DNA of 32,000 nt. Source: an uncultured Acidobacteriota bacterium. Lineage in GTDB: Bacteria > Acidobacteriota > Vicinamibacteria > Vicinamibacterales > UBA2999. Both the position numbers and the translations under genes were made by a program. The notes below the pieces were generated by a model, which was not told the DNA's origin, ran no database searches, and saw only the letters and a list, made by a program, of their open reading frames with translations. The stretch lies in NCBI GenBank assembly GCA_963751025.1, contig CAVVTC010000006.1:285722-317721 (forward strand), read 5' to 3'. Below are positions 6,422-30,627 of the stretch, in pieces; within the stretch, counting starts at the first letter, position 1; each line of letters opens with the position of its first letter.

Positions 6422-7135
6422 CTACCACTCTTCGGCGTGGACGTAGAATGCCCGTGAATCCCAGTTGCTCACGGGCATCCGATGTGTCGTGTGTGCGAGT
6501 CTCCCTGCGCAGATGCGATTGTCGCGCAAGTACGCTGCGATGAGCGGCAGCGCGTCGCGCGTATGGGGCGCCGCGTCGTGCAGCAGGACGACGCCGCCGG
6601 ACTGGGTCGAGCGCACGGCACGCACGATGTCTGTCGCGTGTACCCCCTTCCAGTCGTGGGAGTCAACGGTCCAGACCACGTCCGTCAGACCCACCGCGGA
6701 CAGGCTCCGGCTCACCTCGTCGTTCGACTCTCCGTAAGGCAGACGGACGAACTCGACATTCGCACCGGTGACGTCGCGAATCGCTTGTCGGCTGCGCAAC
6801 AGCTCACTCGTGATCGCGATGCCGGTCTGCTTGGTCAAGTCCGCGTGCGTGTGAGAATGGCTGGCGATCGCGTGTCCCTCAGCGAGGATCCGACGCGCCA
6901 GATCGGGATACCGCTCGACGTTCTCCCCCACCACGAAGAACGTGCCACGGAGCCCTTCTCGTCTCAGTACATCGAGAAGCTCCGACGTCGAAGGGAACGG
7001 ACCATCATCGAACGTCAGTGCGATGACGCCGCCGGGGCACCGCTCCGATGTATGCACTGCGGCAGGCCCGATCATGGCCCACAGTGCGAACGTCCACGCG
7101 ATGCTGCGTATCACCGTGTGTGGGTTCCAACTCAC
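6422..7135 (-). CDS. Polysaccharide deacetylase (CE4, NodB homology domain)
   Basis: IALTFDDGP (TFDDG motif), GTFFVVGENV, HAIASHSHTHADL (H-x-x-x-H zinc motif), RLPYGE and VVLLHD appear in canonical order. The N-terminus is signal-like. The start is GTG at 7135. Confidence 0.85.
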   Translation of the reverse strand: MSWNPHTVIRSIAWTFALWAMIGPAAVHTSERCPGGVIALTFDDGPFPSTSELLDVLRREGLRGTFFVVGENVERYPDLARRILAEGHAIASHSHTHADLTKQTGIAITSELLRSRQAIRDVTGANVEFVRLPYGESNDEVSRSLSAVGLTDVVWTVDSHDWKGVHATDIVRAVRSTQSGGVVLLHDAAPHTRDALPLIAAYLRDNRICAGRLAHTTHRMPVSNWDSRAFYVHAEEW

Positions 7136-7505
7136 TGACGATCTATCGGCCAGTGCCGCCGATAACTTTCTACAACCGTCCGTGGCGCAGCGTTTGCGCG
7201 TTTCTGGGTTCTACCCCTGGCGGGTACTGCTCGAGAATCGCGACTACCTGGTCGCCAGCCAGTTGAGAGTCGCCGTACCGTGCAGCCAGCTCAGCGCGAG
7301 AGAGTAGCACCGGTACGACAGCCCCGGCGGCGATCTCGATCTGCTGCAGGAAGTCTTGGCAGGCGGGTTCGTCCCTGAGTCCCAGCCTCTCCCACGACGG
7401 TTGTAGATTCCGCCTTGCCGGTCACGACGCATCCCAATCCGTCGTATGCTCCGGTTCGGCAAGCCGATCCAAGCAAGGTCCGAATCGAGCGAGCTGGAGG
7501 GGTCC

Positions 7506-8925
7506 ATGGAGGAGACGGTGTCGGCGCAGGCGTTGCGCGAATCCGAAGAGCTTCATCGCATCACGCTGCTCAGCATGTCCGATGCCGTGTTCATCACCGA
7601 CGACAGCGGGGTGTTCACCTTCATCTGCCCGAACGTGGACGTGATCTTCGGTCACAGCCACGAGGACGTTCGGCGCATGGAGCGCATCTCTCGACTGCTT
7701 GGACGAGAGCTGATTCAACCTGGCGAGCTCGCACGCCGGGGAGAAGTGCAGAACATCGAGCACGAGATCGAAACGAAGGACGGACACCACCGGCATCTGT
7801 TGGTACACGTCAAGCCTGTCTCGATCAAGGGCGGGACGATGCTCTATGCATGCCGGGACATCACCGACCGGAAGCGATCCGAACGTGCCCTCAGCCGCAA
7901 CGAGCAGCGCCTGACCCTGGCCCTGGAAGCCGCCAGCGCTGGCACGTGGGATTGGCATGTGCCGACGGGGGAGATGTCCTGGTCGCCAGAGATGCACCGG
8001 ATCTTTCGCGTCGATCACCTGCCCACCTCCTTCGATGCCTTCTTGAATCACGTGCATCCTCTGGACCGAGACCGCGTCGCCCGAACGGTCACCGACGCCA
8101 TGCGAGAGGGCGCGTCGTACGAAACTGAGTTTCGTGTGCTGGGGTCCGGCAATGCCGAGCGATGGGTGATGGCCAAAGGCAGGGGGCTGAGAAACGGAGT
8201 CCCCCTTCGAATGCTCGGCGTGTTCGTCGACTTTACCGAACGCCACCGCGTCGAGGACGAACTCCGCGATCTGAGCGGCCGCCTGATTGATGCGGACGAG
8301 CAGGAACGGCGTCGCCTCGCTCGAGAATTGCATGACGAGATTGGCCAGCGCCTGGCGCTGTTGGCCATGGAGTTTTGGCGCGCTTCGTCAGCGGTTGGGC
8401 GGCGCGTCAGACGACCTGCGTGATGATCTGACGCGGATGGCGTCGGAAATAGCGGCGATCGGTTCGCAGTTGCACGCGTTCTCTCACGACCTGCATCCGG
8501 CACGACTCGAGCAGATTGGTCTCGAAGCCTCGATACGCACCATCTGCCAGGAGATCGCCGCGGCCCGCGGCATGACCATCGATTTCAGTACCGGCGAGGT
8601 GCCCGACGGGCTTCCCCTCCAGATTGCGGTGTGCTTGTACCGCATCGTCCAGGAAGCACTGCACAACGTCGTCAAACACAGCCGCTCCCCGCGAGCCTCG
8701 GTGATTCTCGGTGCGACGCCGGGCGCAATGACGCTTCGTGTATTGGACGAGGGCATCGGGTTCGATCCGCACGACGGACGCAAGAAAGAGACGCTGGGTC
8801 TGGTCAGCATGCGCGAACGCGCCAGGCTGGTGCGCGGTGACTTCGCCGTGACATCAGAAGCTGGCAAAGGAACCACCATCGACGTTCGGGTTCCGCTGAG
8901 CCTGGTCCACGAGCGCGAGTCGTAG
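7506..8925 (+). CDS. PAS-PAS sensor histidine kinase, HisKA_3 (NarL/LuxR-partner) type; one frame break at 8373-8376
   Basis: ATG 7506 has GGAGGG 6 nt upstream; the alternative start is ATG 7446. There are two PAS-like modules (HRITLLSMSDAVFITDDSG..LYACRDITDRKRSE and LTLALEAASAGTWDWHV..LGVFVDFTERHRVE). The H-box is ERRRLARELHDEIGQRL. The HATPase_c region lies in the frame of 8287..8925 (VQEALHNVVKH, LRVLDEGIGFD, GLVSMRERARL). No response regulator gene is adjacent. Confidence 0.85.
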
Positions 8926-8966
8926 GCGCCGACCAGATCCTCGGATAGGTTTGGGCCGGGCGGCCG

Positions 8967-9521
8967 CTACTTCTCCGACACCGGCACGGCCTTGAACCCT
9001 GCGACCTTCAGCCAGCCCGGAATCGATCGGGCGCTGCTGCGATCCTTCTCACGCTCTGATTCCGACAGCTGCGCCCAGTCCACCAGAAGTGGATGGTGCT
9101 TGCGATCGTTGTCGCGCTCCTTCGCGTAGGTCCAGCCGTTCGCGCGGCGGTCCGCACACCATCCCAGGTGCTCGGCCTGCGCCAGGCGGTCGATGTGCGT
9201 CTCGATGGCCGCCGTCAGCGGTTTCACCCATGAATCACCGTCGTTCGGCTGCTGCTCCCTGACCACGAAATCGATGAGCCCGAGAAGATCGGGAACCCGA
9301 CGCGCCGCTGCGCGATTGGATGCTTTCAGATCCTCTGGCAGGTCGTCATAGGCGCGCACCACGGTCGGGTGCGTCTTCCACGCCACTTCAGGCTGCCTGG
9401 ACATTTCGGCGTCCTGAGCCGCTTTCGCAGCGCCATCGAGGTAGCTGCTGTGAACGGCCGCGGCCAATTTCTCGATGTCTGGGTAGTTCTTCAACGTGGA
9501 CATGCTGTCCCGCTCCATCAC
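8967..9521 (-). CDS. RyR (ryanodine-receptor repeat) domain protein with two tandem RyR-like repeats
   Basis: The C-terminal half, AEHLGWCADRRANGWTYAKERDNDRKHHPLLVDWAQLSESEREKDR, fits the bacterial RyR-domain pattern (H..W...GW.Y......K.HP.LV.W..L.E.E..KDR). The N-terminal half is a degenerate copy (THPTVVRAYDDLPEDLKASNRAAARRV). There is no signal peptide or TM segment. Possible starts are 9521 (GTG), 9518 or 9503 (ATG). Confidence 0.7.
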   Translation of the reverse strand: MMERDSMSTLKNYPDIEKLAAAVHSSYLDGAAKAAQDAEMSRQPEVAWKTHPTVVRAYDDLPEDLKASNRAAARRVPDLLGLIDFVVREQQPNDGDSWVKPLTAAIETHIDRLAQAEHLGWCADRRANGWTYAKERDNDRKHHPLLVDWAQLSESEREKDRSSARSIPGWLKVAGFKAVPVSEK

Positions 9522-9643
9522 CGCTCGGAACCTCGCTGCATCATTGGAGCCCGGATCTTGGCAGACGTTGCTCCGCTTGAAAAGGTCGAGTCGGCGTCGC
9601 TCCCTTGACTATCTAGGGAAGAAGATCTATCCTCGCGACTCGA

Positions 9644-9658
9644 CCTAGATTATCTAGG
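9644..9658. promoter_or_regulatory. Candidate PadR operator: perfect 15-bp palindrome CCTAGAT-T-ATCTAGG
   Basis: It lies 15 nt upstream of the padR ATG (9673). The 9-nt string TATCTAGGG recurs at 9610-9618, next to a TTGACT hexamer (9605-9610). A 10-bp inverted repeat GGTCGAGTCG (9584-9593) / CGACTCGACC (9636-9645) brackets the first site. Confidence 0.5.
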
Positions 9659-9672
9659 GTGGACGGCCAGCG

Positions 9673-10011
9673 ATGGAAAAAGAACTGCTGCACGGCACGC
9701 TCGAAGTCCTGATTCTGAAGACCCTCAGTTGGGGCCCGATGCACGGCTTCGGCATCGGCAAGTGGATCGGGCAACTGAGCGGCGACGAACTGCGCATCGA
9801 AGAAGGTTCGCTCTATCCCGCGCTCTATCGGCTCGAGAAAAAGGGGCTGGTCGATGCGGCCTGGGGACTGTCCGACAACGGACGCCGCGCGAAGTTCTAT
9901 CGCCTGACCGCGGAAGGGCGCAGGCAGTTGCTCAAGAACGCCGACATCTGGTCGGGCTTCGCGCAGGCGGTGGCCCGCGTCCTGAGCGCCAAACAGCAGC
10001 CAGTGTCATGA
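9673..10011 (+). CDS. PadR-family transcriptional regulator (Acidobacterial PadR type)
   Basis: LEVLILKTLSWGPMHGFGIGKWI..EEGSLYPALYRLEKKGLV..RRAKFYRLTAEGRRQL is a canonical PadR winged helix. Its stop overlaps the next gene's start (ATGA at 10008-10011). Confidence 0.9.
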   Translation: MEKELLHGTLEVLILKTLSWGPMHGFGIGKWIGQLSGDELRIEEGSLYPALYRLEKKGLVDAAWGLSDNGRRAKFYRLTAEGRRQLLKNADIWSGFAQAVARVLSAKQQPVS

Positions 10012-12719: not shown

Positions 12720-13607
12720 TCAGCGGCCGATAGCCCCGAGCGCCCACGCGGCCTGGCGACGGACTTTGGGGCTCGAATCCTTGAGCGTCGCGGCGAGTGC
12801 GTCCATGGCGCGGCGATCGCGGATCGCGCCCAGCGCCCATGCCGCCTGCGAACGAACGGTCTCGTCCTGATCTTTCAGGGCGTTGATCAATCCGTCCACG
12901 GCCCGCGGATCGCGGATCGCGCCGAGCGCCCATGCCACCTGTGACCGGACGCCGGCGTCAGCATCGCGAAGCGCGTCGATCAGTGCGGTGACGGCGACAT
13001 CGGCATCGAGCGCGCCGAGCGCCCAGGCGGCGACGCGACGAACCGGCGGCTCGCGATCGGCGAGCGCGGCGAGGGTCGGTGTCACGCCTCGGGCATCGTC
13101 GAGTGCGCCCAGTGCCCAGACGGCGTTGCGTCGCGCGACCCACTGCGGCGCGCGCGCGGCGGTGATGAGCGACGGCAGCGACTCGGTGCCGATCGCGACG
13201 AGCGCCGCGGCGGCCTCCTCTCCTGGCGAGGTCTGTTGATCGATGTCCCGCGACCAGTAGTAGCGGTCCTCGCCGCACACCTTGGGATCAACCGGAGAGC
13301 CATCCGGCAGGCGCTCGACGAGCGCGGCGATCGCGTTGCGCGCACCGGATCCGAGACGCTGCAGATCGCACGCGGCGACTGCACGCACGCGAGGGTCGCC
13401 GTCGCGCAGCCTGGCGACGAGATCCGCCGCATCCTGATCGGCGACGTACGAGATCAGGGCTATCGCGGACGTGGACGTCAGCTGAGGCTGCCCGGGAAGC
13501 TGATGGACCAGCGAAGCGACGAGCGTCATCGCCGCGCCGATGAGCGCGACCAGCGTATCGACGGTCGATTTGAAGAACGAGACGCAGAATGGCATGACGG
13601 GCTCCAT
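12720..13607 (-). CDS. HEAT-repeat (PBS-lyase HEAT-like) protein with an N-terminal hydrophobic segment
   Basis: At least six repeats of the type D..P.VR..AAWALGAI(R)D (DREPPVRRVAAWALGALD, DADAGVRSQVAWALGAIRD, DQDETVRSQAAWALGAIRD, DSSPKVRRQAAWALGAIG). The N-terminal segment VDTLVALIGAAMTLVASLV looks like a TM anchor. Confidence 0.8.
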   Translation of the reverse strand: MEPVMPFCVSFFKSTVDTLVALIGAAMTLVASLVHQLPGQPQLTSTSAIALISYVADQDAADLVARLRDGDPRVRAVAACDLQRLGSGARNAIAALVERLPDGSPVDPKVCGEDRYYWSRDIDQQTSPGEEAAAALVAIGTESLPSLITAARAPQWVARRNAVWALGALDDARGVTPTLAALADREPPVRRVAAWALGALDADVAVTALIDALRDADAGVRSQVAWALGAIRDPRAVDGLINALKDQDETVRSQAAWALGAIRDRRAMDALAATLKDSSPKVRRQAAWALGAIGR

Positions 13608-13630: not shown

Positions 13631-13703
13631 GTAGGGGCCGCCTTGAGGTGGCCCTCGGGCCGGCTGAAGCCGGCCCCCACGTTGGAAGCCGGCCCCCACG
13701 TTG
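13631..13703. repeat. Cluster of REP-like GC hairpins (one inverted, one direct, plus a 19-bp-period tandem partial copy)
   Basis: GTAGGGGCCGCCTTGAGGTGGCCC (13631-13654) is followed by GGGCCGGC-TGAA-GCCGGCCC (13657-13676). AAGCCGGCCCCCACGTTG then occurs twice (13667-13684 and 13686-13703). The cluster fills the gap between two same-strand genes. Confidence 0.8.
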
Positions 13704-15574: not shown

Positions 15575-15964
15575 TTAAGCTCCCTGTTTGCGGGCCTGGT
15601 CGATCAGCTTCTTCAGGCGATCGAGCTCGGCGTCATCGAGACGCGATGAGGAGACGTCGAGCAGGGCGGACATGGCCTGAGACGTTGAGCCGTCGAAGAA
15701 GGTTTGCAGCATGTGGCGCATCGCCGACCGCTTTGCGTTGTCGCGCGCGATCACCGGGACGTAGAGGTAGCGAGGCCCGTCCTGCTCGTGCCGGATGTGC
15801 CCCTTCTCCTCGAGGATGCGCAGCAGGGATCGCACGGCGGAGTAGCTGGGGGCGGCCGGGAGCTCGGCGCGGATATCGGCGGCCGAGGCTCGTCCGAGTT
15901 TGTACAGGGCGTCCACGATCTGCCGCTCGCGGCGGCTCAGATCGCTGTGAACGGTTCGACTCAT
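15575..15964 (-). CDS. BlaI/MecI/CopY-family transcriptional repressor
   Basis: MSRTVHSDLSRRERQIVDALYKLGRASAADIRAELPAAPSYSAVRSLLRILEEKGHIRHEQDGPRYLYVP is a winged helix. GAGGGAG lies upstream of ATG 15964. There is a 5-nt gap to the M56 gene. Confidence 0.9.
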   Translation of the reverse strand: MSRTVHSDLSRRERQIVDALYKLGRASAADIRAELPAAPSYSAVRSLLRILEEKGHIRHEQDGPRYLYVPVIARDNAKRSAMRHMLQTFFDGSTSQAMSALLDVSSSRLDDAELDRLKKLIDQARKQGA

Positions 15965-15994: not shown

Positions 15995-16020
15995 GTGCTG
16001 AGAAATTAGCACAGTGCTAA
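15995..16020. promoter_or_regulatory. Candidate BlaI operator: GTGCT-N8-AGCAC overlapping the perfect 15-bp palindrome TTAGCAC-A-GTGCTAA (16006-16020)
   Basis: Three phased GTGCT/AGCAC half-sites lie 31-56 nt upstream of the blaI-like start codon. Confidence 0.45.
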
Positions 16021-16029
16021 GAACTTGGC

Positions 16030-16065
16030 ACAGGCCGGCACGGCCTGTCAAGCGGGTTGTTTTTT
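16030..16065. terminator. Hairpin ACAGGCC-GGCAC-GGCCTGT followed by T6 (on +), just downstream of the minus-strand MBL-fusion gene
   Basis: A 7-bp stem (16030-16036/16042-16048) with a T run at 16060-16065. On the minus strand the A-run precedes the stem, so terminator function for the minus gene is uncertain. Confidence 0.3.
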
Positions 16066-22032: not shown

Positions 22033-22845
22033 CTAAGCGATCCAGCGCTGCGGATCGTGGTGCTCGAGATACTGGCGCCTGGTGATCCAGCCGAGGATCA
22101 TCGACTTGGTGATCCACCATTTCTCGGGCCGCACAGCGAAGTACACGTGTGCGATGACCAGCCCGACCAGCGCCACTCCGGCCAGCCCGTGCGCGACGTA
22201 CGTGACGCCCCACATCGAGTCGCCGAGCAGGTATGGGTTGCGCGTGAACAGCGGCGTCCGGATGCGGACCATCATCAGCAGGCCACTGACGGCGACACCC
22301 AGCCCGGCGACCACGATGGCCAGGTGATAGAGGCGATTGCCCAGCGGATACTTGCCGGACTTGGGTCCGTCTACGTCCTGCCCAAGCTCGCGCAGCAGCT
22401 CCGCCTTCAGCTCGGGCACGTCTTTCGGGCCGACCCAGATCGACCAGAAGTCCATCCACACCGTGGCGTGGACGATGTGAAAGACGATCGAGGCGGTGAG
22501 GACGAGTCCTGCCATCCAGTGCCAGGTCACCCACGCGAACTGGATCCCGACGATCGGCAGGAAGGCCGTGAACAACAGGACGAACATCGCCGCGGCCATG
22601 ACCCAGTGGAAGAGCCGCGCGGCGAGCGAGTGGCGGGGAATCCGGGCGGGCAGATCGCTGCGCGCCGCCTCGAGTCGATCCGTCTCGAGCGCATCTCGTT
22701 TGCGATGCCTGGAGAGCAGCATATAGCTGGCGTGGGCCACCAGGAACGCCAGCCCGGCGAAGAGCGACGCCCAGAGCAGATCCCACGAGATGTGCGTGAG
22801 GATCCACTGACCCCACGGACTGCGTCCCCAGGTCAGGAGGTCCAT
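22033..22845 (-). CDS. Membrane di-haem cytochrome b subunit (FdnI / Ni-Fe-hydrogenase cytochrome b family-like)
   Basis: Multiple TM helices with conserved-style His residues (RHSLAARLFHWVMAAAMFVLLFT, IVFHIVHATVW, NRLYHLAIVVAG, VIAHVYFAVRPEKW). The start at 22845 is 3 nt from the stop of the FAD-subunit gene. Confidence 0.75.
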   Translation of the reverse strand: MDLLTWGRSPWGQWILTHISWDLLWASLFAGLAFLVAHASYMLLSRHRKRDALETDRLEAARSDLPARIPRHSLAARLFHWVMAAAMFVLLFTAFLPIVGIQFAWVTWHWMAGLVLTASIVFHIVHATVWMDFWSIWVGPKDVPELKAELLRELGQDVDGPKSGKYPLGNRLYHLAIVVAGLGVAVSGLLMMVRIRTPLFTRNPYLLGDSMWGVTYVAHGLAGVALVGLVIAHVYFAVRPEKWWITKSMILGWITRRQYLEHHDPQRWIA

Positions 22846-22848
22846 GCG

Positions 22849-23850
22849 TCAGGACTCCGTCCCGCGAACCGCGCGTTTGACCAGGTTGCGCAGCAGCGGA
22901 ACTTTGTAGGCGTTGTGGTGCAGCGGCACGGCGCCGGCGATCGCGAGCTCGCCGGCAGCGGCCGCCGTCGCCTCGTCACGCCTCCTGCCGCGCACCGCGT
23001 TCTCCACCGCCGGCAGGCGCAGCGGCGTCGGCGCCACGCCGTTCACGGCGATGCGCATGCGCGTCACGGTGTCGCCCGACATCACTGCAGCCGACGCGAC
23101 GTTCACGAGCGGAAAGTCCCACACGTTCCGATCGGCGACCTTCTCGAAATAGAAGTGCGCGCCGGCCCACGTTCCGGGAAGCCGGATGGCCGTGAGCAGT
23201 TCTCCGGTGCGCAGCACCGTCATTCGCGTGATGTCGGTACCCGGACCGACGAAGTAGTCCTCGGCTGCGACGATCCGCTCGCCGTCGCGGCTGCGGATGA
23301 CCATCTCTGCCTCGAGCGCGATCAGCGCCGGGGACGTGTCGGACGGGTTCACGGCGACGCAGCGGTCCGCGCCGAGGATCGCGTGCTCGCGATTGATCGC
23401 GGTCGGCGTGTCGGCGTAGCAGATGTTGCCGCCCGCCCGATAGCAGGACCATCCGGCCCTGTAGTACCAGCAGCGCGTGTCCTGCGTGACGTTGCCGCCG
23501 ATCGTGCCCTGATTCCGGATCTGCGGAGACGCAGCGGCCTCGGAGGCCTGCAGCAGAATCGAGTAGCGCTCCTTGATCACCGGATGCCGCACGACCTCGG
23601 TGAGCGTCGTCATCGCGCCGATCTCGAGGCCGTCGCCGCGCGTGCGGATGCCTGTCAGCTCCGCGATCGCGCTCAGATCGACGACGACGCTCGGGCGCTT
23701 GATGCGATCCTTCAGCCAGTCGAAGCTGTCGAGCCCGCCGGCGAGTACCCAGGCGCTCGAGCCGTGACGGTCGAGCAGCTCCAGCGCGGCGTCGATCGAC
23801 GCCGGCTGATACAGCTCGAAGGCGGGCATGACATCGCGGATGACTGCCAT
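22849..23850 (-). CDS. Xanthine dehydrogenase-family FAD-binding subunit (PaoB/CoxM-like) with a four-Cys cluster motif
   Basis: PAFELYQPASIDAALELL..AWVLAGGLDSFDWLK and IRNQGTIGGNV are FAD_binding_5 strings. The Cys string is TRCWYYRAGWSCYRAGGNICYA..ADRC. The CO_deh_flav_C-like C-terminus includes FEKV..RNVWDFPLVNVA. GAGGA lies upstream of ATG 23850. Confidence 0.85.
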   Translation of the reverse strand: MAVIRDVMPAFELYQPASIDAALELLDRHGSSAWVLAGGLDSFDWLKDRIKRPSVVVDLSAIAELTGIRTRGDGLEIGAMTTLTEVVRHPVIKERYSILLQASEAAASPQIRNQGTIGGNVTQDTRCWYYRAGWSCYRAGGNICYADTPTAINREHAILGADRCVAVNPSDTSPALIALEAEMVIRSRDGERIVAAEDYFVGPGTDITRMTVLRTGELLTAIRLPGTWAGAHFYFEKVADRNVWDFPLVNVASAAVMSGDTVTRMRIAVNGVAPTPLRLPAVENAVRGRRRDEATAAAAGELAIAGAVPLHHNAYKVPLLRNLVKRAVRGTES

Positions 23851-23865
23851 CTAGGTCCTCTGCCG

Positions 23866-23946
23866 TAATTCAGAATGCAGAATTCAGAATTCAGACAATG
23901 TCGGGGTCGGAGTATGTCTGCATTCTGCATTCTGAATTCAGAATTA
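23866..23946. repeat. AT-rich imperfect palindrome built from CAGAATK heptamers (intercistronic hairpin element)
   Basis: TAATT-CAGAATG-CAGAATT-CAGAATT-CAGACA, then an 18-nt centre, then GTCTG-CATTCTG-CATTCTG-AATTCAGAATTA. The arms pair at 27 of 31 positions by hand alignment. The element overlaps the TAA stop (23944-23946) of the upstream cistron. Confidence 0.85.
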
Positions 23947-26900
23947 CATATGAGCCCGCAAGGGCTCGTGCATCCGTCGTCCGTGCTCCAGCGACATCAG
24001 CACGATGTCGGCGGTCACCGGGGCGCGGCGGAACGCGTCCACACCGATGGCGTCGGCGATCGCATTGAGCACGGCGCCATAACCGGCGCCGACCGGCGGC
24101 TCGCCGACGCCGCGCGCACCGACCGGCGTCTCAGGGTCGGCGATGTCGAGCGCCACAGCCTGCAGCCGATTGGGAATGTCGAGGATCGTCAGCGGCTTGT
24201 TGTAGTGGAACCGCCGCGCGAGCGTGACGCCGTACTGCGGATCGACGACCCACTTCTGACAGAGCGCATGGGCGATGCCGAGACAACTCCCGCCATTGAG
24301 CTGCGCGATCAGGCTTCGGGGGTTGACGACCGTCCCGACGTCTCCCACGGAAAGAAAGTCGACGAGCGTCACCTTGCCAATCTCGACGTCCACTTCGACC
24401 TCGGCGAACCCGATGACGAACGAGAACGTGTTGCCGTCGCGCGGATAGTTGTCCTTCGCGACTCCCATCAGCCCGAGTCCCATGAGCGCGGCTGCCGACG
24501 TCTTCGTCATCTGATTGACATCATCGGGGACGACGTGGCCGTCGAAGCGGCCGCCCAGCTCGATCGCGCGGCGAGCGGCCTGCGCGTAGCTCAGACCGCG
24601 TCCGGGACTGCCGCGGCGATAGACGCGCTCGCTGCCGAGCTCGTAGTCGTCCGGCGAGCCGCCGAGATCCATCGCGGCGATCTCCTGCAGCTTCTTCTTC
24701 GCGTCCATCGCGCCCGCATGGTTGGCGCGCGTCATCGCGTGCGTCGTCTGGCTGCCGACCGAGAGACACGTCCATGGCAGGTGCTTGCCGGTGTTGCCCC
24801 ACACGACCTCGACTTTCTCCCAGGGCATCGCCAGCACGTCAGCGGCGACGCGCGCGAGATCGAACACCGAATGCGTCCCGAGATTGCCGACGCCCGATTG
24901 GACGTACAGCTTGCCGTCGGGACGCAGCGTCATGATGGCGTCCCAGCCGATCGATCCCGCGCCGTGCGGGCCTACCGTCACGCCGATGCCGCGCACCTTG
25001 CTGCCCTGGCGCTTCCCGCTGCGTGCCTTGCGCTCCTCCCAGTTGAAGACCTGCGCGCCCTTGTCGAGCGCTTCGGTGACGAACGCGCTGGTCGCGTGCG
25101 GACGCACACCGTTCGGGCCGGGCGGGCCGTAGACGGCCTTGCCCTTCGGTGCGTTGATGCGGCGGATCGCCACCTGATCGAGGCCGAGCTGCTTCGCCGC
25201 CTTGGTGACGATCGGCTCGATGATGCCGTTGGCCTGCATCGGGCCCGGCGACCGCTGCTGCGTTCGCGGCGGCGTGTTGGTGATCACGTTGATCGCCCGC
25301 CAGCGCATCGCGCCGGGCTGATAGATCAACGAGGCGGCGTTGCCCGCGGATCGATGATCGCCCATCGGGCCGTACGCGCCCGAGTCCTGGACGATGAAGA
25401 GGTCGAGCGCGGTGATGCGGCCGTCCTTGGCGAAGCCGACCCGCGCGCGGCCGGACATGTTGGTGCGCGCACGGCCGATGTAGCTCTCCTCTTCGCGGCT
25501 GATGCGCATCATCACCGGCGCGTTGGCCTTCTTCGCGAGCAGCGCAGGAATCGCCGACGACACCGCGCCCGCGCCCTTGCTGCCGAACCCGCCGCCCGTG
25601 TACTCGCAGATCAGGACCACGTCGGACGGTGGGATGCCGACCCAGCGCGCGATGCCGGCCACCGTGAACGCGACGCTCTGCGTGGAGGCGTGCAGAAACA
25701 GCTTGCCGTTCTGCCAGTAGGCCATCGCGCTGCGCGTTTCCATCGGGTGGTGACTCGTGGACTGCACGATGAAGCTCTCGTCGAGCACGAGCTCGGCGGT
25801 CTTGAAGCCGGCATCGAGATCGCCGAACGACCACTCCTCGAGCGCCTTGCCCATCGGCAGCCGTCCGGGATCGCCTTCGTCATCAGCGAAGTCGGCGGCC
25901 GTCCATTTCACGGTCTCGGGGACTGGCGCTGGAGCGGGGCCCTGGCGCGCCCGGGCGCCGGTGGACGCGGTGCGCCCCAGACGTTGCCGTTCAACCGCGC
26001 GTTGGGGCCGCCGGGCCGGAGGCTGTCGAGCGGATCGACGACGAAGGGAAGCGGCTCGAGATCCACCTGGATCGCTTCGATGGCGGATGCCGCGGTCTCT
26101 TCGTTGACGGCCGCGACGGCCAGGATCGGCTCGCCGGCATAGAGCGGCTCGTTGGTCAGCGCCTTCTCGGCGCCGTTCAGATCCGGTACCTCGTCGGCGG
26201 TGAGGATGGCTCTGACGCCGGGAATGGCGAGCGCGGCGCTGGTGTCGATGCCGCGCACGCGCGCGTGCGGCATCGGGCTGAGGAGCAGCTTGGCGAAGAG
26301 CATGCCGTCGGCGCGGAAGTCCTCGGCGTACTTCGCGCGGCCGGTCACCTTGGCGACGTGATCGGGCGGGATGTAGTTCGCGCCAATCAGCTTCCCATCA
26401 GGCATTGGACGGCCTCGCATGTACTCCGCGCCCTTCATCAGCGCGGTGAGGATCTTGTCGTAGTCCTGACAGCGGCACAGATTGCCCGAGACGCCGTGCG
26501 CCAGTTCCTGGCGCGTCGGGTTGGGATTGACCTTGAGGAAGCCGACGGCCGACATGATGAAGCCGGGCATGCAGAAGGCGCACTGAAAGCCCTGCTCGTC
26601 GAGCACGCCGCGTTGCATCGGGTGCAGCTCGCCGGTGGCGCTGGCCAGTCCCTCGATCGTGACGACGGCACGCGACCTCACGGTGTGCGTCAGGATCGAG
26701 CACGAGTAATGCGGAACGTCGTCGATGAGTACGGTACACGCGCCGCACTCGGCGCGGTCGCAGCCCAGCTTGGTGCCGGTGAGCCCCAGCTTGTAGCGCA
26801 GCGTCATGGCCAGCGTTTCCTGCTTCATGACGTCCACGCGCCGCATCTGTCCGTTGACGTTCAGCGTGATCAGACGCTCGACCGCGCCGGGAGCCGAGGT

Positions 26901-27008
26901 CTGGCCGAGGAGCGCGCCGGGGCCGCGGAAGAGATAGGCGGCGGAGGTCGCCGTCGCGCCGGCCGCGATGACGCCTTTGATGAAGGTGCGCCGTGTGACC
27001 GGATCCAT
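23944..27008 (-). CDS. Tat-exported [2Fe-2S] + molybdopterin-binding subunit of a xanthine dehydrogenase/aldehyde oxidoreductase-family enzyme (PaoA-PaoC-like, fused in frame); one frame break (~25910-25990)
   Basis: The Tat signal is MDPVTRRTFIKGVIAAGATATSAA. The 2Fe-2S motifs are GCDRAECGACTV and CAFCMPGF..GNLCRCQDY. With no stop codon the frame continues into MPDGKLIGANYIPPDHVAKVTGRAKYAEDF (Ald_Xan_dh_C N-terminus). After the break, ORF 23944..25911 carries HHPMETRSAMAYW, EYTGGGFGSKG and GVGEPPVGAGYGAVLNAI. Confidence 0.85.
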
Positions 27009-28189: not shown

Positions 28190-28845
28190 ATGCGGAGCAG
28201 ATCGCTCGGGCTCGTCGTCGTCGTCGCATCGGTCGCGGTGCGTCTGCGGGGCAATCCAGACTGCCATCGGACATTCATCCAGAGTCGCTCTCTCGCCTGC
28301 CTCCGCTGCAGCGCGACGCACTGGACGCTGCGGGCAAGCGGATTGGGACGCGTCGGCGGGCGGCCGCGGGATGCCGAAGCACCGGTCCGGCGCCGGTCTC
28401 GATGTACAGTCCCGGGAGTCGCCGGGCCCGATTCACGATCTCAATCAGTACCTGCGGAAGACCGTGGCTGGCAGCCGCTACTTCGAGCTGTCGGCGCTCA
28501 TCGCCGCACGTGAATTCGATCAGCAGTACCGAATGGTCGGGCCACGAACCAGCCGGGGCTGAAGCGCCGGGCTCGAGCAATCGGTGATCGACGTCGTCAA
28601 GTTCAACAAGGACGTCGCCGGGCTGTCAGAGAAGGATGCGACCGTGATTCGGCTCGGTCGCGCGACTGTTCCGCGATCACAAGGTGAGCTCGGAGCTGTG
28701 GGCAAAGACCGTCGAGTTCTTCGGACGTCAGGGCGCCATCGAGATCGTGGCGACGATGGGCGACTACGCGATGGCCGGCTTCATGCTGACGGCCGTCGAT
28801 CAGCAGCTACCGGCGGATCGGAAGCCGATGCTGCCGGTGAAGTAA
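28190..28845 (+). pseudogene. Carboxymuconolactone decarboxylase (CMD/AhpD-like) family protein with a signal-like N-terminus; at least four frame breaks as read
   Basis: ATG 28190 follows GGAGA and gives MRSRSLGLVVVVASVAV. Pieces in different frames: LPPLQRDALDAAGKRI, YLRKTVAGSRYFELSALIAAREFDQQY, VIDVVKFNKDVAGLSEKDATVIRLGRA and ELWAKTVEFFGRQGAIEIVATMGDYAMAGFMLTAVDQQLP. The stop is TAA 28843-28845. Confidence 0.65.
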
Positions 28846-28847
28846 GC

Positions 28848-28993
28848 GGTCCTTGGTCCTTTGTTCTTGGTGCCTGGTCCGTCCTATGGTCCCTGGTCCG
28901 TCCGAGGTCCTTGGTTCGTGGTCCTTCGGACCCAGGACCAAGGACGGACCAGGCCCCAGGACGGACGAAGAACCAAGGCCCAAGGACCAGGGA
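28848..28993. repeat. 146-bp GGTCC/GGACC-rich imperfect palindrome filling the gap between convergent genes
   Basis: The left arm is rich in GGTCC, with CCTGGTCCGTCC occurring twice (28873-28884, 28892-28903). The centre is GGTCC-TTC-GGACC (28920-28932). The right arm carries the reverse complements GGACGGACCAGG (28942-28953), ACCAAGGAC (28937-28945) and CCAAGGACC (28980-28988). Confidence 0.85.
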
Positions 28994-30627
28994 CTAATTA
29001 GCGCGTGCGGCGCGCGTGGCGGTCGAGTTCTTGCCGGTGTTCAGCAGCTGCGCGGCCTCGCCGAAGTAGTTGAGCGCGAACTGCAGCTGCGGGTCCTGCT
29101 TCGCGAGCTTCTCGTACACCCGTGCCGCGCCGAAGAGATCGAGGTCGATCTCCTTCTGCATCATCGCCGTGATGTATGGCAGGTCGGTCTTCCAGCCCGC
29201 CTCGTCGAACCGCATCGGTGCCTGCATGACGAGCTGCCTGAACTCGTTGAGCATCTCATCGGTCACCTGATAGCCGGCGGCGACCTCGCGCCTCGCTGCG
29301 GACGAGGTCAGCGTGACGCGGGCGTCGCCCTGACGCGTGAATCGCCGGGCATAGACGTCGAACAGACCGCGCGCGGTGATCGTGCGGGCGAAGCGACCGG
29401 GGTTGAAGCCTTCGGTCGGGCCGTCGAATCGTCGATCAGGCTCGACGCCGCCGCCGCTGTACACCTTCCGGCCCGCGTCGGTGTATTCGAGATCCTCGGC
29501 CCTGTGCGTCTTGTTGGCGTCCTGATCGCGAATCGTGTAGGTCAGGTAGTCGTCGAAGGTGCCGTCCCACGGACGCTGAATCAGCCGGCCGCTCGGTGTG
29601 TAGTACCGCGCGGTCGTGATCAGCGCCGCGGCGCCGCGGCTGAGGCGATAGACCGACTGCACGAGCGCCTTGCCGAACGTCGTCTCACCGATGACCAGCG
29701 ATCGATCGTGATCCTGCAGGGCTCCTGAGACGATCTCCGATGCGCTCGCGCTCGAGCGGTTCACGAGCGTGATCATCGGCACCGTCAGGTAGTCGCTGCG
29801 CTCCTGGGCGCGATAGTCCTGATCGGATCCGTTGACGCGGCCGCGCGTGTAGACGACCAGGTCGCCCTTGGGCAGGAAGCGGCTCGAGACCAGGATGGCC
29901 TGATCGAGCGCGCCGCCGGGGTTGCCGCGCAGGTCGAACACCAGGCGCTTCATGCCGCGCTTGGTGAGATCGCCCAGCGCGCGACCGAGCTCGCGGTCGC
30001 TGTTCTCGGCGAACTCGGTGAGCTTGATGTAGCCGGTGGTCTCGTCGAGCATGACCGCCGCGGTCACCGTCGGGATGTGCACCTCGTCACGCCGGACGCG
30101 AAGGTCGATCAGCTGCTCGTAGCCGCCGCGCCTGAGCGAGATGTCCACGAACGTGCCGCGGGGCCCTTGAGGCGGCCGACCGTCTGCTCGCTGGTCCAGC
30201 CCTTGGTGTTCTCGCGCTCGATCCTGGCGATGACATCGCCGCGGCGGAGCCCGCTCTCGAACGCCGGCGAGTTCTCGAAGACGGAGGCAACGATGACGTC
30301 GCCGTTGATCACCTGGATGGTGATGCCGAGCCCGTAGTACCGCCCTTCCTGTCGCTCGCGCGTCTGCGCGTATGAGCGGGGATCCATGAAGCTCGAGTGC
30401 GGGTCGAGCGTCTGCAGCAGGCCGGTGATTGCGCTGTAGACGATCCGGTCGGATTCGACGTCGCCGACGTAGACGTCCTCGATGGCGCGGAGGCCGGCGG
30501 TGAAGACCTTGTATTGCTCGGAGACCTGATCCTGGGCGGAAAGCGCGGTGTGTCCGAAATACGCGCCGGCGCAGGCACACAACGCAATGATGATGGCCGC
30601 CGCCGGAAGGGATCGATATCTGGGCAT
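28994..30627 (-). CDS. S41-family C-terminal processing peptidase (Ctp/Tsp-like) with a PDZ domain; one frame break at 30160-30163
   Basis: N-terminal anchor and PDZ region (YYGLGITIQVINGDVIVASVFENSPAFESGLRRGDVIARI). After the break comes the S41 core (RLVFDLRGNPGGALDQA, VPMITLVNRSSASASEIVSGALQDHDRSLVIGETTFGKALVQ). Confidence 0.9.

Follow-up and report, generated by a model that had tools for sequence, protein, structure and literature searches.

The DNA analysed here, referred to throughout as the window, comprises 32,000 nucleotides (nt) of a contig from an uncultured Acidobacteriota bacterium. It carries on its minus strand a molybdoenzyme operon and, between the cistrons for the molybdopterin-cofactor-binding (MoCo) subunit and the FAD-binding subunit, an AT-rich palindrome built of tandem heptamers. 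This element belongs to a class of intergenic tandem-repeat palindromes that Vicinamibacterales-type Acidobacteriota carry. Judged from the orthologous junctions, its history is one of ancestral presence, fast internal change and repeated independent deletion, and not of recent insertion. The explanation that we favour, and rate as moderately probable, operates at the level of DNA: a tandem-repeat palindrome that maintains itself by slippage, by template switching from arm to arm and by hairpin deletion.

The palindrome between the MoCo and FAD cistrons

A repeat search of the window places the inverted repeat in two arms of 33 nt each, at 23865-23897 and 23915-23947, that are complementary at 29 of 33 positions (88%) and have 17 nt between them; the hand alignment of the initial annotation (27 of 31 positions paired, 18-nt loop) was thus essentially right. 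Both arms are tandem CAGAATK heptamers, inverted relative to one another. Tandem Repeats Finder (TRF) reports a period-7 array in each, with 4.1 copies and 90% matches in arm A (23867-23895) and 3.3 copies and 93% matches in arm B (23917-23939). The two-unit pattern CAGAATKCAGAATK, searched for with up to 2 mismatches, has 8 matches in the window, all of them within 23864-23945, where 0.32 would be expected; none of 100 shuffles reaches 8. The unit is AT-rich and without a G-run, the ends of the element are GTAATTC...GAATTAC, and the GC content at 23850-23949 is 0.42, against 0.65-0.75 in the flanks and 0.66 for the window, so that the description of an AT-rich element in a GC-rich genome (42% against 66% GC) stands. 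The parts of the element are as follows.

23865-23897, minus strand: arm A, the 3' arm on the mRNA; the plus strand reads TAATT-(CAGAATG)(CAGAATT)(CAGAATT)-CAGACA
23898-23914, minus strand: loop of 17 nt, GC-rich, ATGTCGGGGTCGGAGTA on the plus strand
23915-23947, minus strand: arm B, the 5' arm on the mRNA; its outermost pairs include the TAA stop codon of the MoCo gene (23944-23946)
23851-23864, minus strand: unpaired spacer that holds the Shine-Dalgarno (SD) motif GAGGA of the FAD-subunit gene (23856-23860; TCCTC on the plus strand)

The element is non-coding and its boundaries are those originally claimed: it begins in the MoCo-gene TAA, which lies inside the outer stem, and between the end of the hairpin and the FAD ATG there are 15 nt, with GAGGA left unpaired. 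Folded as minus-strand RNA, it gives the long stem-loop that had been supposed, a single one of -40.9 kcal/mol (z = -4.05; 0 of 200 shuffles as good) in which 6-bp helices are separated by a single mismatch each 7 nt. The two DNA strands fold alike, at -21.4 and -23.1 kcal/mol (z = -6.8 and -8.3). When the arms pair in register, the mismatch falls at the variable seventh position of each unit and generates 1x1 loops with a 7-nt period; offset by one unit, the arms still present 22 nt at 95% complementarity, so the hairpin is able to pair in several registers.

The MoCo stop and the FAD start were located in 172 related loci (designated by L numbers). The relatives retrieved by a metagenome scan are, among the matches listed, mostly at 70-77% protein identity, with three at 86-89%; close relatives came from protein look-ups. 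Some of the contigs carry long-read indel errors and fragmented genes (L168, for example). Homologous elements are found at the same MoCo-FAD junction in the window, L003/L004, L087, L005/L006, L013, L082, L097 and L168, and have in common the outer ends TAATTC...GAATTAC(A/G)GC, followed by the SD. The amino acid identity of the FAD subunit to that of the window is 99% in L168, 91% in L003/L004, ~89% in L087, 86% in L005/L006 and ~76% in L013/L082/L097. Because homologues share these outer ends in relatives down to ~75% protein identity, the element is old at this junction. A free SD follows the hairpin in every carrier lineage, with 12-20 nt from the end of the hairpin to the ATG.

The unit is AGAATGC/GCATTCT in the window, L003 and L087, and AAAATGC/GCATTTT in L005, L013, L082, L097 and L168. 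The switch affects both arms together, and complementarity stays high in each hairpin (29/33, 23/26, 31/33 and 29/30). A column-wise count of covariation on anchored CARAATK-family arms was dropped, since members of the family pair in different 7-nt registers and the columns are not homologous; the evidence used in its place is the directly readable switch at the level of units, together with the complementarity of each element. Change by whole units is also seen: one arm of L003 is shorter, by exactly one 7-nt unit, than its counterpart in the window and L087. The loop of the window, ATGTCGGGGTCGGAGTA, has a CCGACC core in common with the loop of L003/L004 and is unrelated to that of L168, whose element is of the CAAA(A)TG type.

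The initial annotation had advised comparison with orthologous operons lacking the insert, and this turns up empty sites with several footprints. In a neighbour-joining tree built from 1,050 nt of coding sequence in the flanks, the window falls with L001, L167, L168 and L002, at 96-98% nucleotide identity. (L169, with a long branch due to a frameshift-misplaced stop codon, was ignored in this tree and also left out of the census of 141 spacers and their hairpins described below.) Inside that clade or beside it, the empty site is TAGAGATCAC(C)TATG in L001, L002 and L169; the one in L167 is different, and L170 and L171 have a third form. At the empty sites of strains with 96-98% identical flanks the spacer is 8-13 nt long and there is no substitute hairpin. 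With empty sites in near-identical strains, the element is dispensable for the operon. Fragments of arms are kept at L008/L110 (TAAATCAGAA followed by CGAGAG) and at L007 (...GAATTCCACC followed by GAGAG), and the distribution of CAGAATG-type and CAAAATG-type alleles is at odds with the flank tree. L172, which is 93% identical, has an unrelated junction insert of 252 nt (9749-10000) with an 18-nt inverted repeat, GGTGCGGGACTGTATGTC ... GACATGCAGTCCCGCACC, and a loop of ~170 nt.

Mis-assembly can affect palindromes, and several of the related contigs resemble error-prone long-read assemblies with fragmented genes (L168 again), which raises the matter of an assembly or chimeric artefact. Homologues stand at the same site, however, in independent short- and long-read assemblies from different samples and centres: L003 and L004, from different samples, are identical, and so are L005 (ENA) and L006 (JGI). 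We give the artefact almost no credence.

The Pfam domains of the genes around the element identify an operon of the xanthine dehydrogenase family and bear out the placement between two of its cistrons. In the order of transcription these are:

25908-27008, minus strand: 2Fe-2S (Fer2, Fer2_2) and a/b-hammerhead domain, first cistron
23944-25911, minus strand: molybdopterin-cofactor-binding subunit (MoCoBD_1 and MoCoBD_2), cistron upstream of the element
22849-23850, minus strand: FAD-binding subunit (FAD_binding_5 and CO_deh_flav_C), cistron downstream of the element
22033-22845, minus strand: cytochrome b561-type membrane subunit, next cistron

FAD-subunit homologues go by the name xanthine dehydrogenase family subunit M/YagS; the nearest named ones come from Vicinamibacterales, and the relatives, which belong to that order, bear out an origin in the Acidobacteriota. 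The gene upstream of the element had been called an FeS-Moco gene. Its MoCo-binding domains are there, but the 2Fe-2S and hammerhead domains are in the preceding open reading frame (ORF), 25908-27008. The split of the FeS, hammerhead and MoCo coding sequence varies among near-identical relatives. In the window, where the hammerhead domain is in the FeS ORF, there are 366 + 655 amino acids (aa) with an overlap at 25908-25911; L001 has one ORF of 1,021 aa (6927-9992), and L002 (6928-9991), L005 (6826-9886) and L167 have 203 + 819 aa. These differences are either frameshift errors in some long-read assemblies or real gene fusion or fission.

A class of intergenic repeat palindromes

A survey for similar elements covered 1.98 Mb of related Acidobacteriota loci, with shuffles as control. 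Tandem arrays of at least three units number 94 at period 7, 37 at period 8 and 13 at period 9, as against 9, 2 and 0 in the shuffles. An inverted partner accompanies 55 arrays, of which 52 are at period 7-9, and the shuffles have none. A strict hairpin scan of the first 1.58 Mb yields 13 periodic hairpins, where shuffled sequence yields 0. Of the 31 paired period-7 arrays, 29 are intergenic, against 78% coding sequence overall, a background rate that rests on a crude gene map drawn with a heuristic based on GC at third codon positions (GC3). After grouping there are 38 paired elements, about half of which begin within 5 nt of the upstream stop codon; the class is also present between convergent and divergent genes. 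The detectors are ungapped, which makes these counts lower bounds: the strict version missed the elements at 28847-28996 of the window and in L009, L082 and L097.

The units vary from locus to locus. Among the heptamers are CAGAATK, GGTCCKT, CGGGAYT, TCGTTCG, TGCGGAT, GCCGGTA and CAGATTT, and among the 8-mers GGGTRATT, GGTCATYT and AACTGAGG. Locus-specific units fit generation in situ better than they fit the copying of a single mobile sequence. A second member of the class is present in the window:

28847-28996, no strand assigned: (GGTCCKT)n / (AMGGACC)n palindrome, ~150 nt

It fills the gap between two convergent stop codons, the TAA of a plus-strand ORF at 28843-28845 and the stop of an S41 peptidase gene (28994-30580, minus strand), and it folds at -107.9 kcal/mol (z = -10.4). 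Among the close relatives, L167 is one unit off in one arm, and the copy is decayed in L001 and asymmetric in L172; in L002 and L168 a (GGCTACC)n direct array stands in its place.

That the MoCo-FAD element belongs to a repeated class is borne out. The CARAATK unit itself forms no array beyond the MoCo-FAD junction, either in the window or across the ~2 Mb from relatives. This restriction is one of several features that sit badly with a non-autonomous mobile element (MITE- or REP-like) moved by a transposase encoded elsewhere in the genome. Such an element would account for the polymorphism of presence and absence among near-identical strains, its arms would be terminal inverted repeats (the element ends TA...TA), and one unit family does occur at two or three loci of a genome (in L055 at the junction and at 15735-15835; in L026/L027 at the junctions and at L027:14005-14160). 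On the other hand, unit sequence, unit length (7-9 nt) and copy number differ by locus, the element predates the species-level clade, and the empty sites and partial footprints differ in their endpoints, as deletions would, rather than excision. Filled and empty sites, TA-[...]-TA-CGGCA-GAGG and TA-GAGA, give no clean target-site duplication. A MITE with a TA duplication came into consideration since the element starts at the TA of the stop codon and ends in TA; it was rejected because C(A/G)GC(A) intervenes, as extra sequence, before the part that matches the empty site. The GTAG/CGTC tag of REPs is absent. The REP/MITE-like insertion offered by the initial annotation is not borne out in its strict form, the element being ancestral and repeatedly lost, with no fitting target-site duplication and no REP end tags; we regard mobility as improbable.

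Still less probable, to our minds, is the phased 7-nt protein-binding array that had also been suggested, that is, a site for a heptamer-recognising protein (of the OB-fold or cold-shock type, or a regulator) on DNA or single-stranded RNA. Units placed 7 nt apart do not stay in phase along the DNA helix. The periodicity is strict, and CspB-type proteins, in the discussion given in PMC4679880, bind heptamer repeats with one protein per heptamer. The units, however, are unrelated between loci, vary with lineage and change within the orthologous element; 8- and 9-nt periods occur in the same class; and the arms, paired to each other, would be mostly unavailable as single strands.

Two further repeats in the window may be recorded here. 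At 15995-16033, a 19-nt unit that has dyad symmetry within it (consensus GTGCTAAGAAATTAGCACA) is reported by TRF in 2 copies, with 85% matches between them; the pair lies upstream of the start of a minus-strand gene and resembles a pair of putative operator sites. At 12800-12982 there is a 93-nt tandem duplication, in 2 copies that are 75% identical, within the ORF at 12720-13607 on the minus strand.

Proposed maintenance in DNA or possible selection in RNA

The self-maintaining palindrome that we favour would work as follows. Replication slippage would add, remove and homogenise units within an arm; the whole-unit indels are seen, and slippage is their supposed cause. Intrastrand template switching between the arms (quasipalindrome correction) would preserve complementarity as the unit drifts, which is what the switching of both arms, taken with established knowledge of the process, suggests: template switching perfects inverted repeats and homogenises their arms (PMC7202029, PMC8604942). 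Hairpin-mediated deletion would occasionally remove the whole element, a route to which the differing empty-site footprints point. The element is confined, on this account by purifying selection, to the sole free space, between a stop codon (absorbed into the stem) and the next SD. Heptameric simple sequence repeats (SSRs) are over-represented in bacterial intergenic DNA according to earlier surveys, as these are recounted in PMC4692102, where a hypothesis of polymerase slippage is likewise relayed. Once transcribed, the present element must fold, between the MoCo and FAD cistrons, into a stem-loop of about -41 kcal/mol. That hairpin would separate termination from re-initiation, and it could shield the upstream segment from 3'-exonucleases in the manner of a REP, a role that has been put forward for REP and STRR hairpins (PMC2670836).

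A number of observations speak against this DNA-level account, of which slippage and template switching are themselves inferred rather than seen directly. Strict tandem-repeat palindromes are found at 16 of ~167 MoCo-FAD junctions, as against 22 of ~1,343 other intergenic regions (~10% vs 1.6%), and this enrichment could mean that a hairpin is selected there. Spacers of at least 60 nt occur in 54 of 157 MoCo-FAD junctions, as against 7 of 136 junctions between the FAD and cytochrome b (cyt b) cistrons, which served as control (34% vs 5%). Other lineages have unrelated REP-like hairpins at the MoCo-FAD junction, and the element, though deletable, has lasted across a deep divergence (~75% protein identity). 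Finally, among 23 elements in co-directional contexts, 18 have a purine-rich 5' arm on the sense strand (p = 0.011), and G exceeds C there in 17 against 4; the junction cases among them are not independent. A strand-symmetric neutral process predicts no such bias, which could reflect an RNA-level or transcription-coupled constraint, or the avoidance of SD-like sequence beside the real SD.

The contrast between junctions must be read with the nature of the control in mind. The FAD-to-cyt b junction is normally overlapping (its median spacer is a 13-nt overlap), and since an overlapping junction cannot accept inserts, the contrast is partly one of permissiveness. Inheritance accounts for another part, and the junction cases are phylogenetically non-independent. 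The 141 distinct MoCo-FAD spacers include 91 short ones, 15 strict tandem-repeat palindromes with roughly eight more recognised by eye, and 9 other hairpins. In a group with 8-mer units, the outer ends TGAATTTGG...CCAGATTCA-AGGAG are common to the members and the inner units are different, which again suggests turnover of units inside a persistent element.

The REP-like elements, as read by eye, are GC-rich and occupy five junction spacers (L090, L099, L100, L107 and L141; GGGCCGGCTGAAGCCGGCCCCTACG type). They form a separate family of hairpins, of the GGGCCGGCTGAAGCCGGCCCC-(T/C)ACG type and often in tandem, that also occurs at L082:12319-12379, L083:5537-5605 and L002:6703-6752; at 13666-13703 of the window, GAAGCCGGCCCCCACGTTG is repeated perfectly (19 nt x2) and is similar to one half of this motif. 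Six junction spacers of another clade (L014, L015, L104, L105, L114 and L121; ~75-80 nt) are conserved and non-repetitive, of the form ...GGCCATGACCGGAA.G.CGCGACCGTAAGC.ATGAGGAGAACGGAAAATG, and may be a distinct conserved intercistronic RNA motif. The FAD-to-cyt b junction is itself not always free of inserts: that of L104, L105 and L121 (~110-130 nt) has a long near-perfect hairpin, TAGCACAGGCACTCTTGCCTGTGCGG ... CCGCACAGGCAAGAGTGCCTGTGCTA, that of L029 a 9-mer repeat palindrome and that of L119 a GGAACGA palindrome.

If pairing were kept for the sake of the sense RNA, mismatches compatible with G·U pairing should exceed those of the A·C type in the stems. In 26 elements of known transcript orientation no such excess is found (25 G·U-type against 22 A·C-type mismatches, p = 0.77), the power of the comparison, with 47 informative mismatches, being modest. 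Other signals were also looked for. There are 0 sites resembling intrinsic terminators in 23600-24200, the mRNA having the hairpin and then CGGCAGAGG where a terminator would have a U-tract; a sigma-70 promoter consensus at the element was looked for and none was found. No Rfam family matches the element: a scan of the whole window brought only a tRNA above threshold, and the best that a permissive one gave was a miRNA-precursor model from plants, a generic hairpin match whose 24.5 bits compare with a threshold of 83.

These results bear most directly on the reading in which what is selected is an intercistronic RNA stem-loop, under which the mRNA stabiliser or processing site for subunit stoichiometry offered by the initial annotation also falls. 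Any hairpin of sufficient stability between the MoCo stop and the FAD SD would then be favoured, with repeats merely its building material; it could block 3'-to-5' exonucleases for the FeS/MoCo segment or direct processing, like REP hairpins and further decay determinants inside operons, or uncouple translation, so that subunit ratios are tuned. The strong RNA fold agrees with this reading, and so do the frequencies of hairpin inserts and of long spacers given above, the purine/G-rich arm coming first on the sense strand (p about 0.01), the at least five unit families that appear with REP-like and other hairpins at the same junction across lineages, and the SD that is always unpaired, 12-20 nt before the ATG. 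It is less easily squared with the empty sites of strains whose flanks are 96-98% identical, where an 8-13-nt spacer has no replacement hairpin, with the missing excess of G·U over A·C mismatches, or with the occurrence of the class between convergent and divergent genes, and the usual overlap at the control junction makes that junction less permissive to insertion. Subunits of the xanthine dehydrogenase family assemble in equal numbers, moreover, which leaves no obvious need for differential expression. Precedents are provided by the STRR hairpins between hupS and hupL, for which transcript stability or translational coupling has been proposed (PMC2670836), and by differential decay within operons, which is widespread (PMC5927463). 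All told, we consider a selected stem-loop possible rather than probable.

Known repeat systems and significance

Of the two nearest counterparts, the first is that same cyanobacterial STRR system, in which 7-bp repeats form a hairpin between hupS and hupL (PMC2670836). In common with it, the present element consists of tandem 7-bp units, forms a hairpin and is located between two subunit cistrons of a metalloenzyme operon; it is intergenic between stop codon and SD, with 4.1 + 3.3 copies in arms that are 88% complementary. It differs in belonging to the Acidobacteriota (66% GC) and in having a unit that appears locus-specific in the available sequence, whereas the STRR unit is dispersed genome-wide. 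The Acidobacteriota class also includes 8- and 9-nt periods, and here the comparative series shows turnover, unit switching and loss.

Of the heptamer SSRs GGGAATC of Xanthomonas and GGGGA(C/T)T of Nostoc, 89-93% fall in intergenic DNA, at a mean distance of 28 nt from where the upstream ORF has its 3' end (Rehm et al. 2015, PMC4692102). They form 70-75 convergent array pairs per genome, with the potential for a stem-loop or cruciform, and their length and sequence vary between close species (PMC4692102). The arrays of the present element are likewise convergent and overlap the upstream stop codon, and GGGAYTC (L005:3707-3781) and CGGGRCT (L009 junction) fit the GGGANTN consensus. In Xanthomonas and Nostoc, though, there is one G-rich, G-quadruplex-capable unit family per genome, while in the Acidobacteriota many unrelated units coexist. 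The role of G-quadruplexes that has been proposed for the Xanthomonas repeats is inapplicable to CAGAATK, which is AT-rich and without a G-tract.

Other systems are more remote. REPs are 20-40 nt long, of a single high-copy sequence family, with a GTAG/CGTC end tag (PMC3733652). Like REP/BIME sequences, which are intergenic and often operon-internal transcribed hairpins and have been proposed as mRNA stabilisers, the element stands within an operon; in contrast to them it is 81 nt long and made of tandem units, it lacks a tag, and neither the window nor the related loci hold another copy. As for MITEs, inverted arms are present, and a target-site duplication is absent from the comparison of filled and empty sites. 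TAACTGA heptamer direct repeats are known from Beggiatoaceae, Cyanobacteria and Bacteroidetes (PMC4679880); these too are intergenic arrays, of 2-6 copies, at gene boundaries, and missing from the orthologous spacers of close relatives. They are direct repeats of one fixed unit, however, just upstream of start codons, with one inverted case reported (PMC4679880). Quasipalindromic template-switch hotspots share with the present class an established mechanism that perfects inverted repeats and homogenises their arms (PMC7202029, PMC8604942), but they have been described as mutational hotspots of ordinary sequence and not as the upkeep of a class of repeat palindromes. Full-text, title and abstract searches of the literature found no description of heptamer-repeat elements of this kind in Acidobacteria, and the literature compared reports no established function or origin for hairpin repeats of the STRR/Xanthomonas type.

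The element is, then, a real feature that was well described. It is an ordinary example of a kind of bacterial repeat that is already known but has been little studied, here in a new phylum. To the cyanobacteria and Xanthomonas it adds a third, unrelated phylum with hairpin-forming short-period repeats. The earlier descriptions compared report no graded orthologous series such as this one, which runs from ~98% nucleotide identity of the flanks down to ~70% protein identity and in which the life cycle of such an element can be followed: persistence, switching of units in both arms, indels of whole units, replacement by other unit families and repeated clean loss. The series makes the DNA-level model (slippage and template switching) and the RNA-level model (a selected hairpin) separately testable. 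In practical terms, such elements give rise to length polymorphism between strains, and to trouble for assembly and annotation, in GC-rich metagenome-assembled genomes from soil.

Two regularities stay unexplained, the enrichment at the MoCo-FAD junction and the bias of strand orientation. With these in mind one might suppose, as a speculation that we ourselves hold to be unlikely, that the period-7/8 repeat palindromes at stop codons in Acidobacteriota, cyanobacteria and xanthomonads are the product of one specific process, or selected junction modules that are indifferent to sequence (any hairpin will do), or both. If that were true, coupling to the direction of transcription or translation would explain why the purine/G-rich arm comes first and why the palindromes start at the stop codon. 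The MoCo-FAD junction, with its at least five unit families and its REP-like substitutes, would then be a natural experiment in the convergent recruitment of intercistronic hairpins, and would offer a handle on what repeats of the STRR type do.

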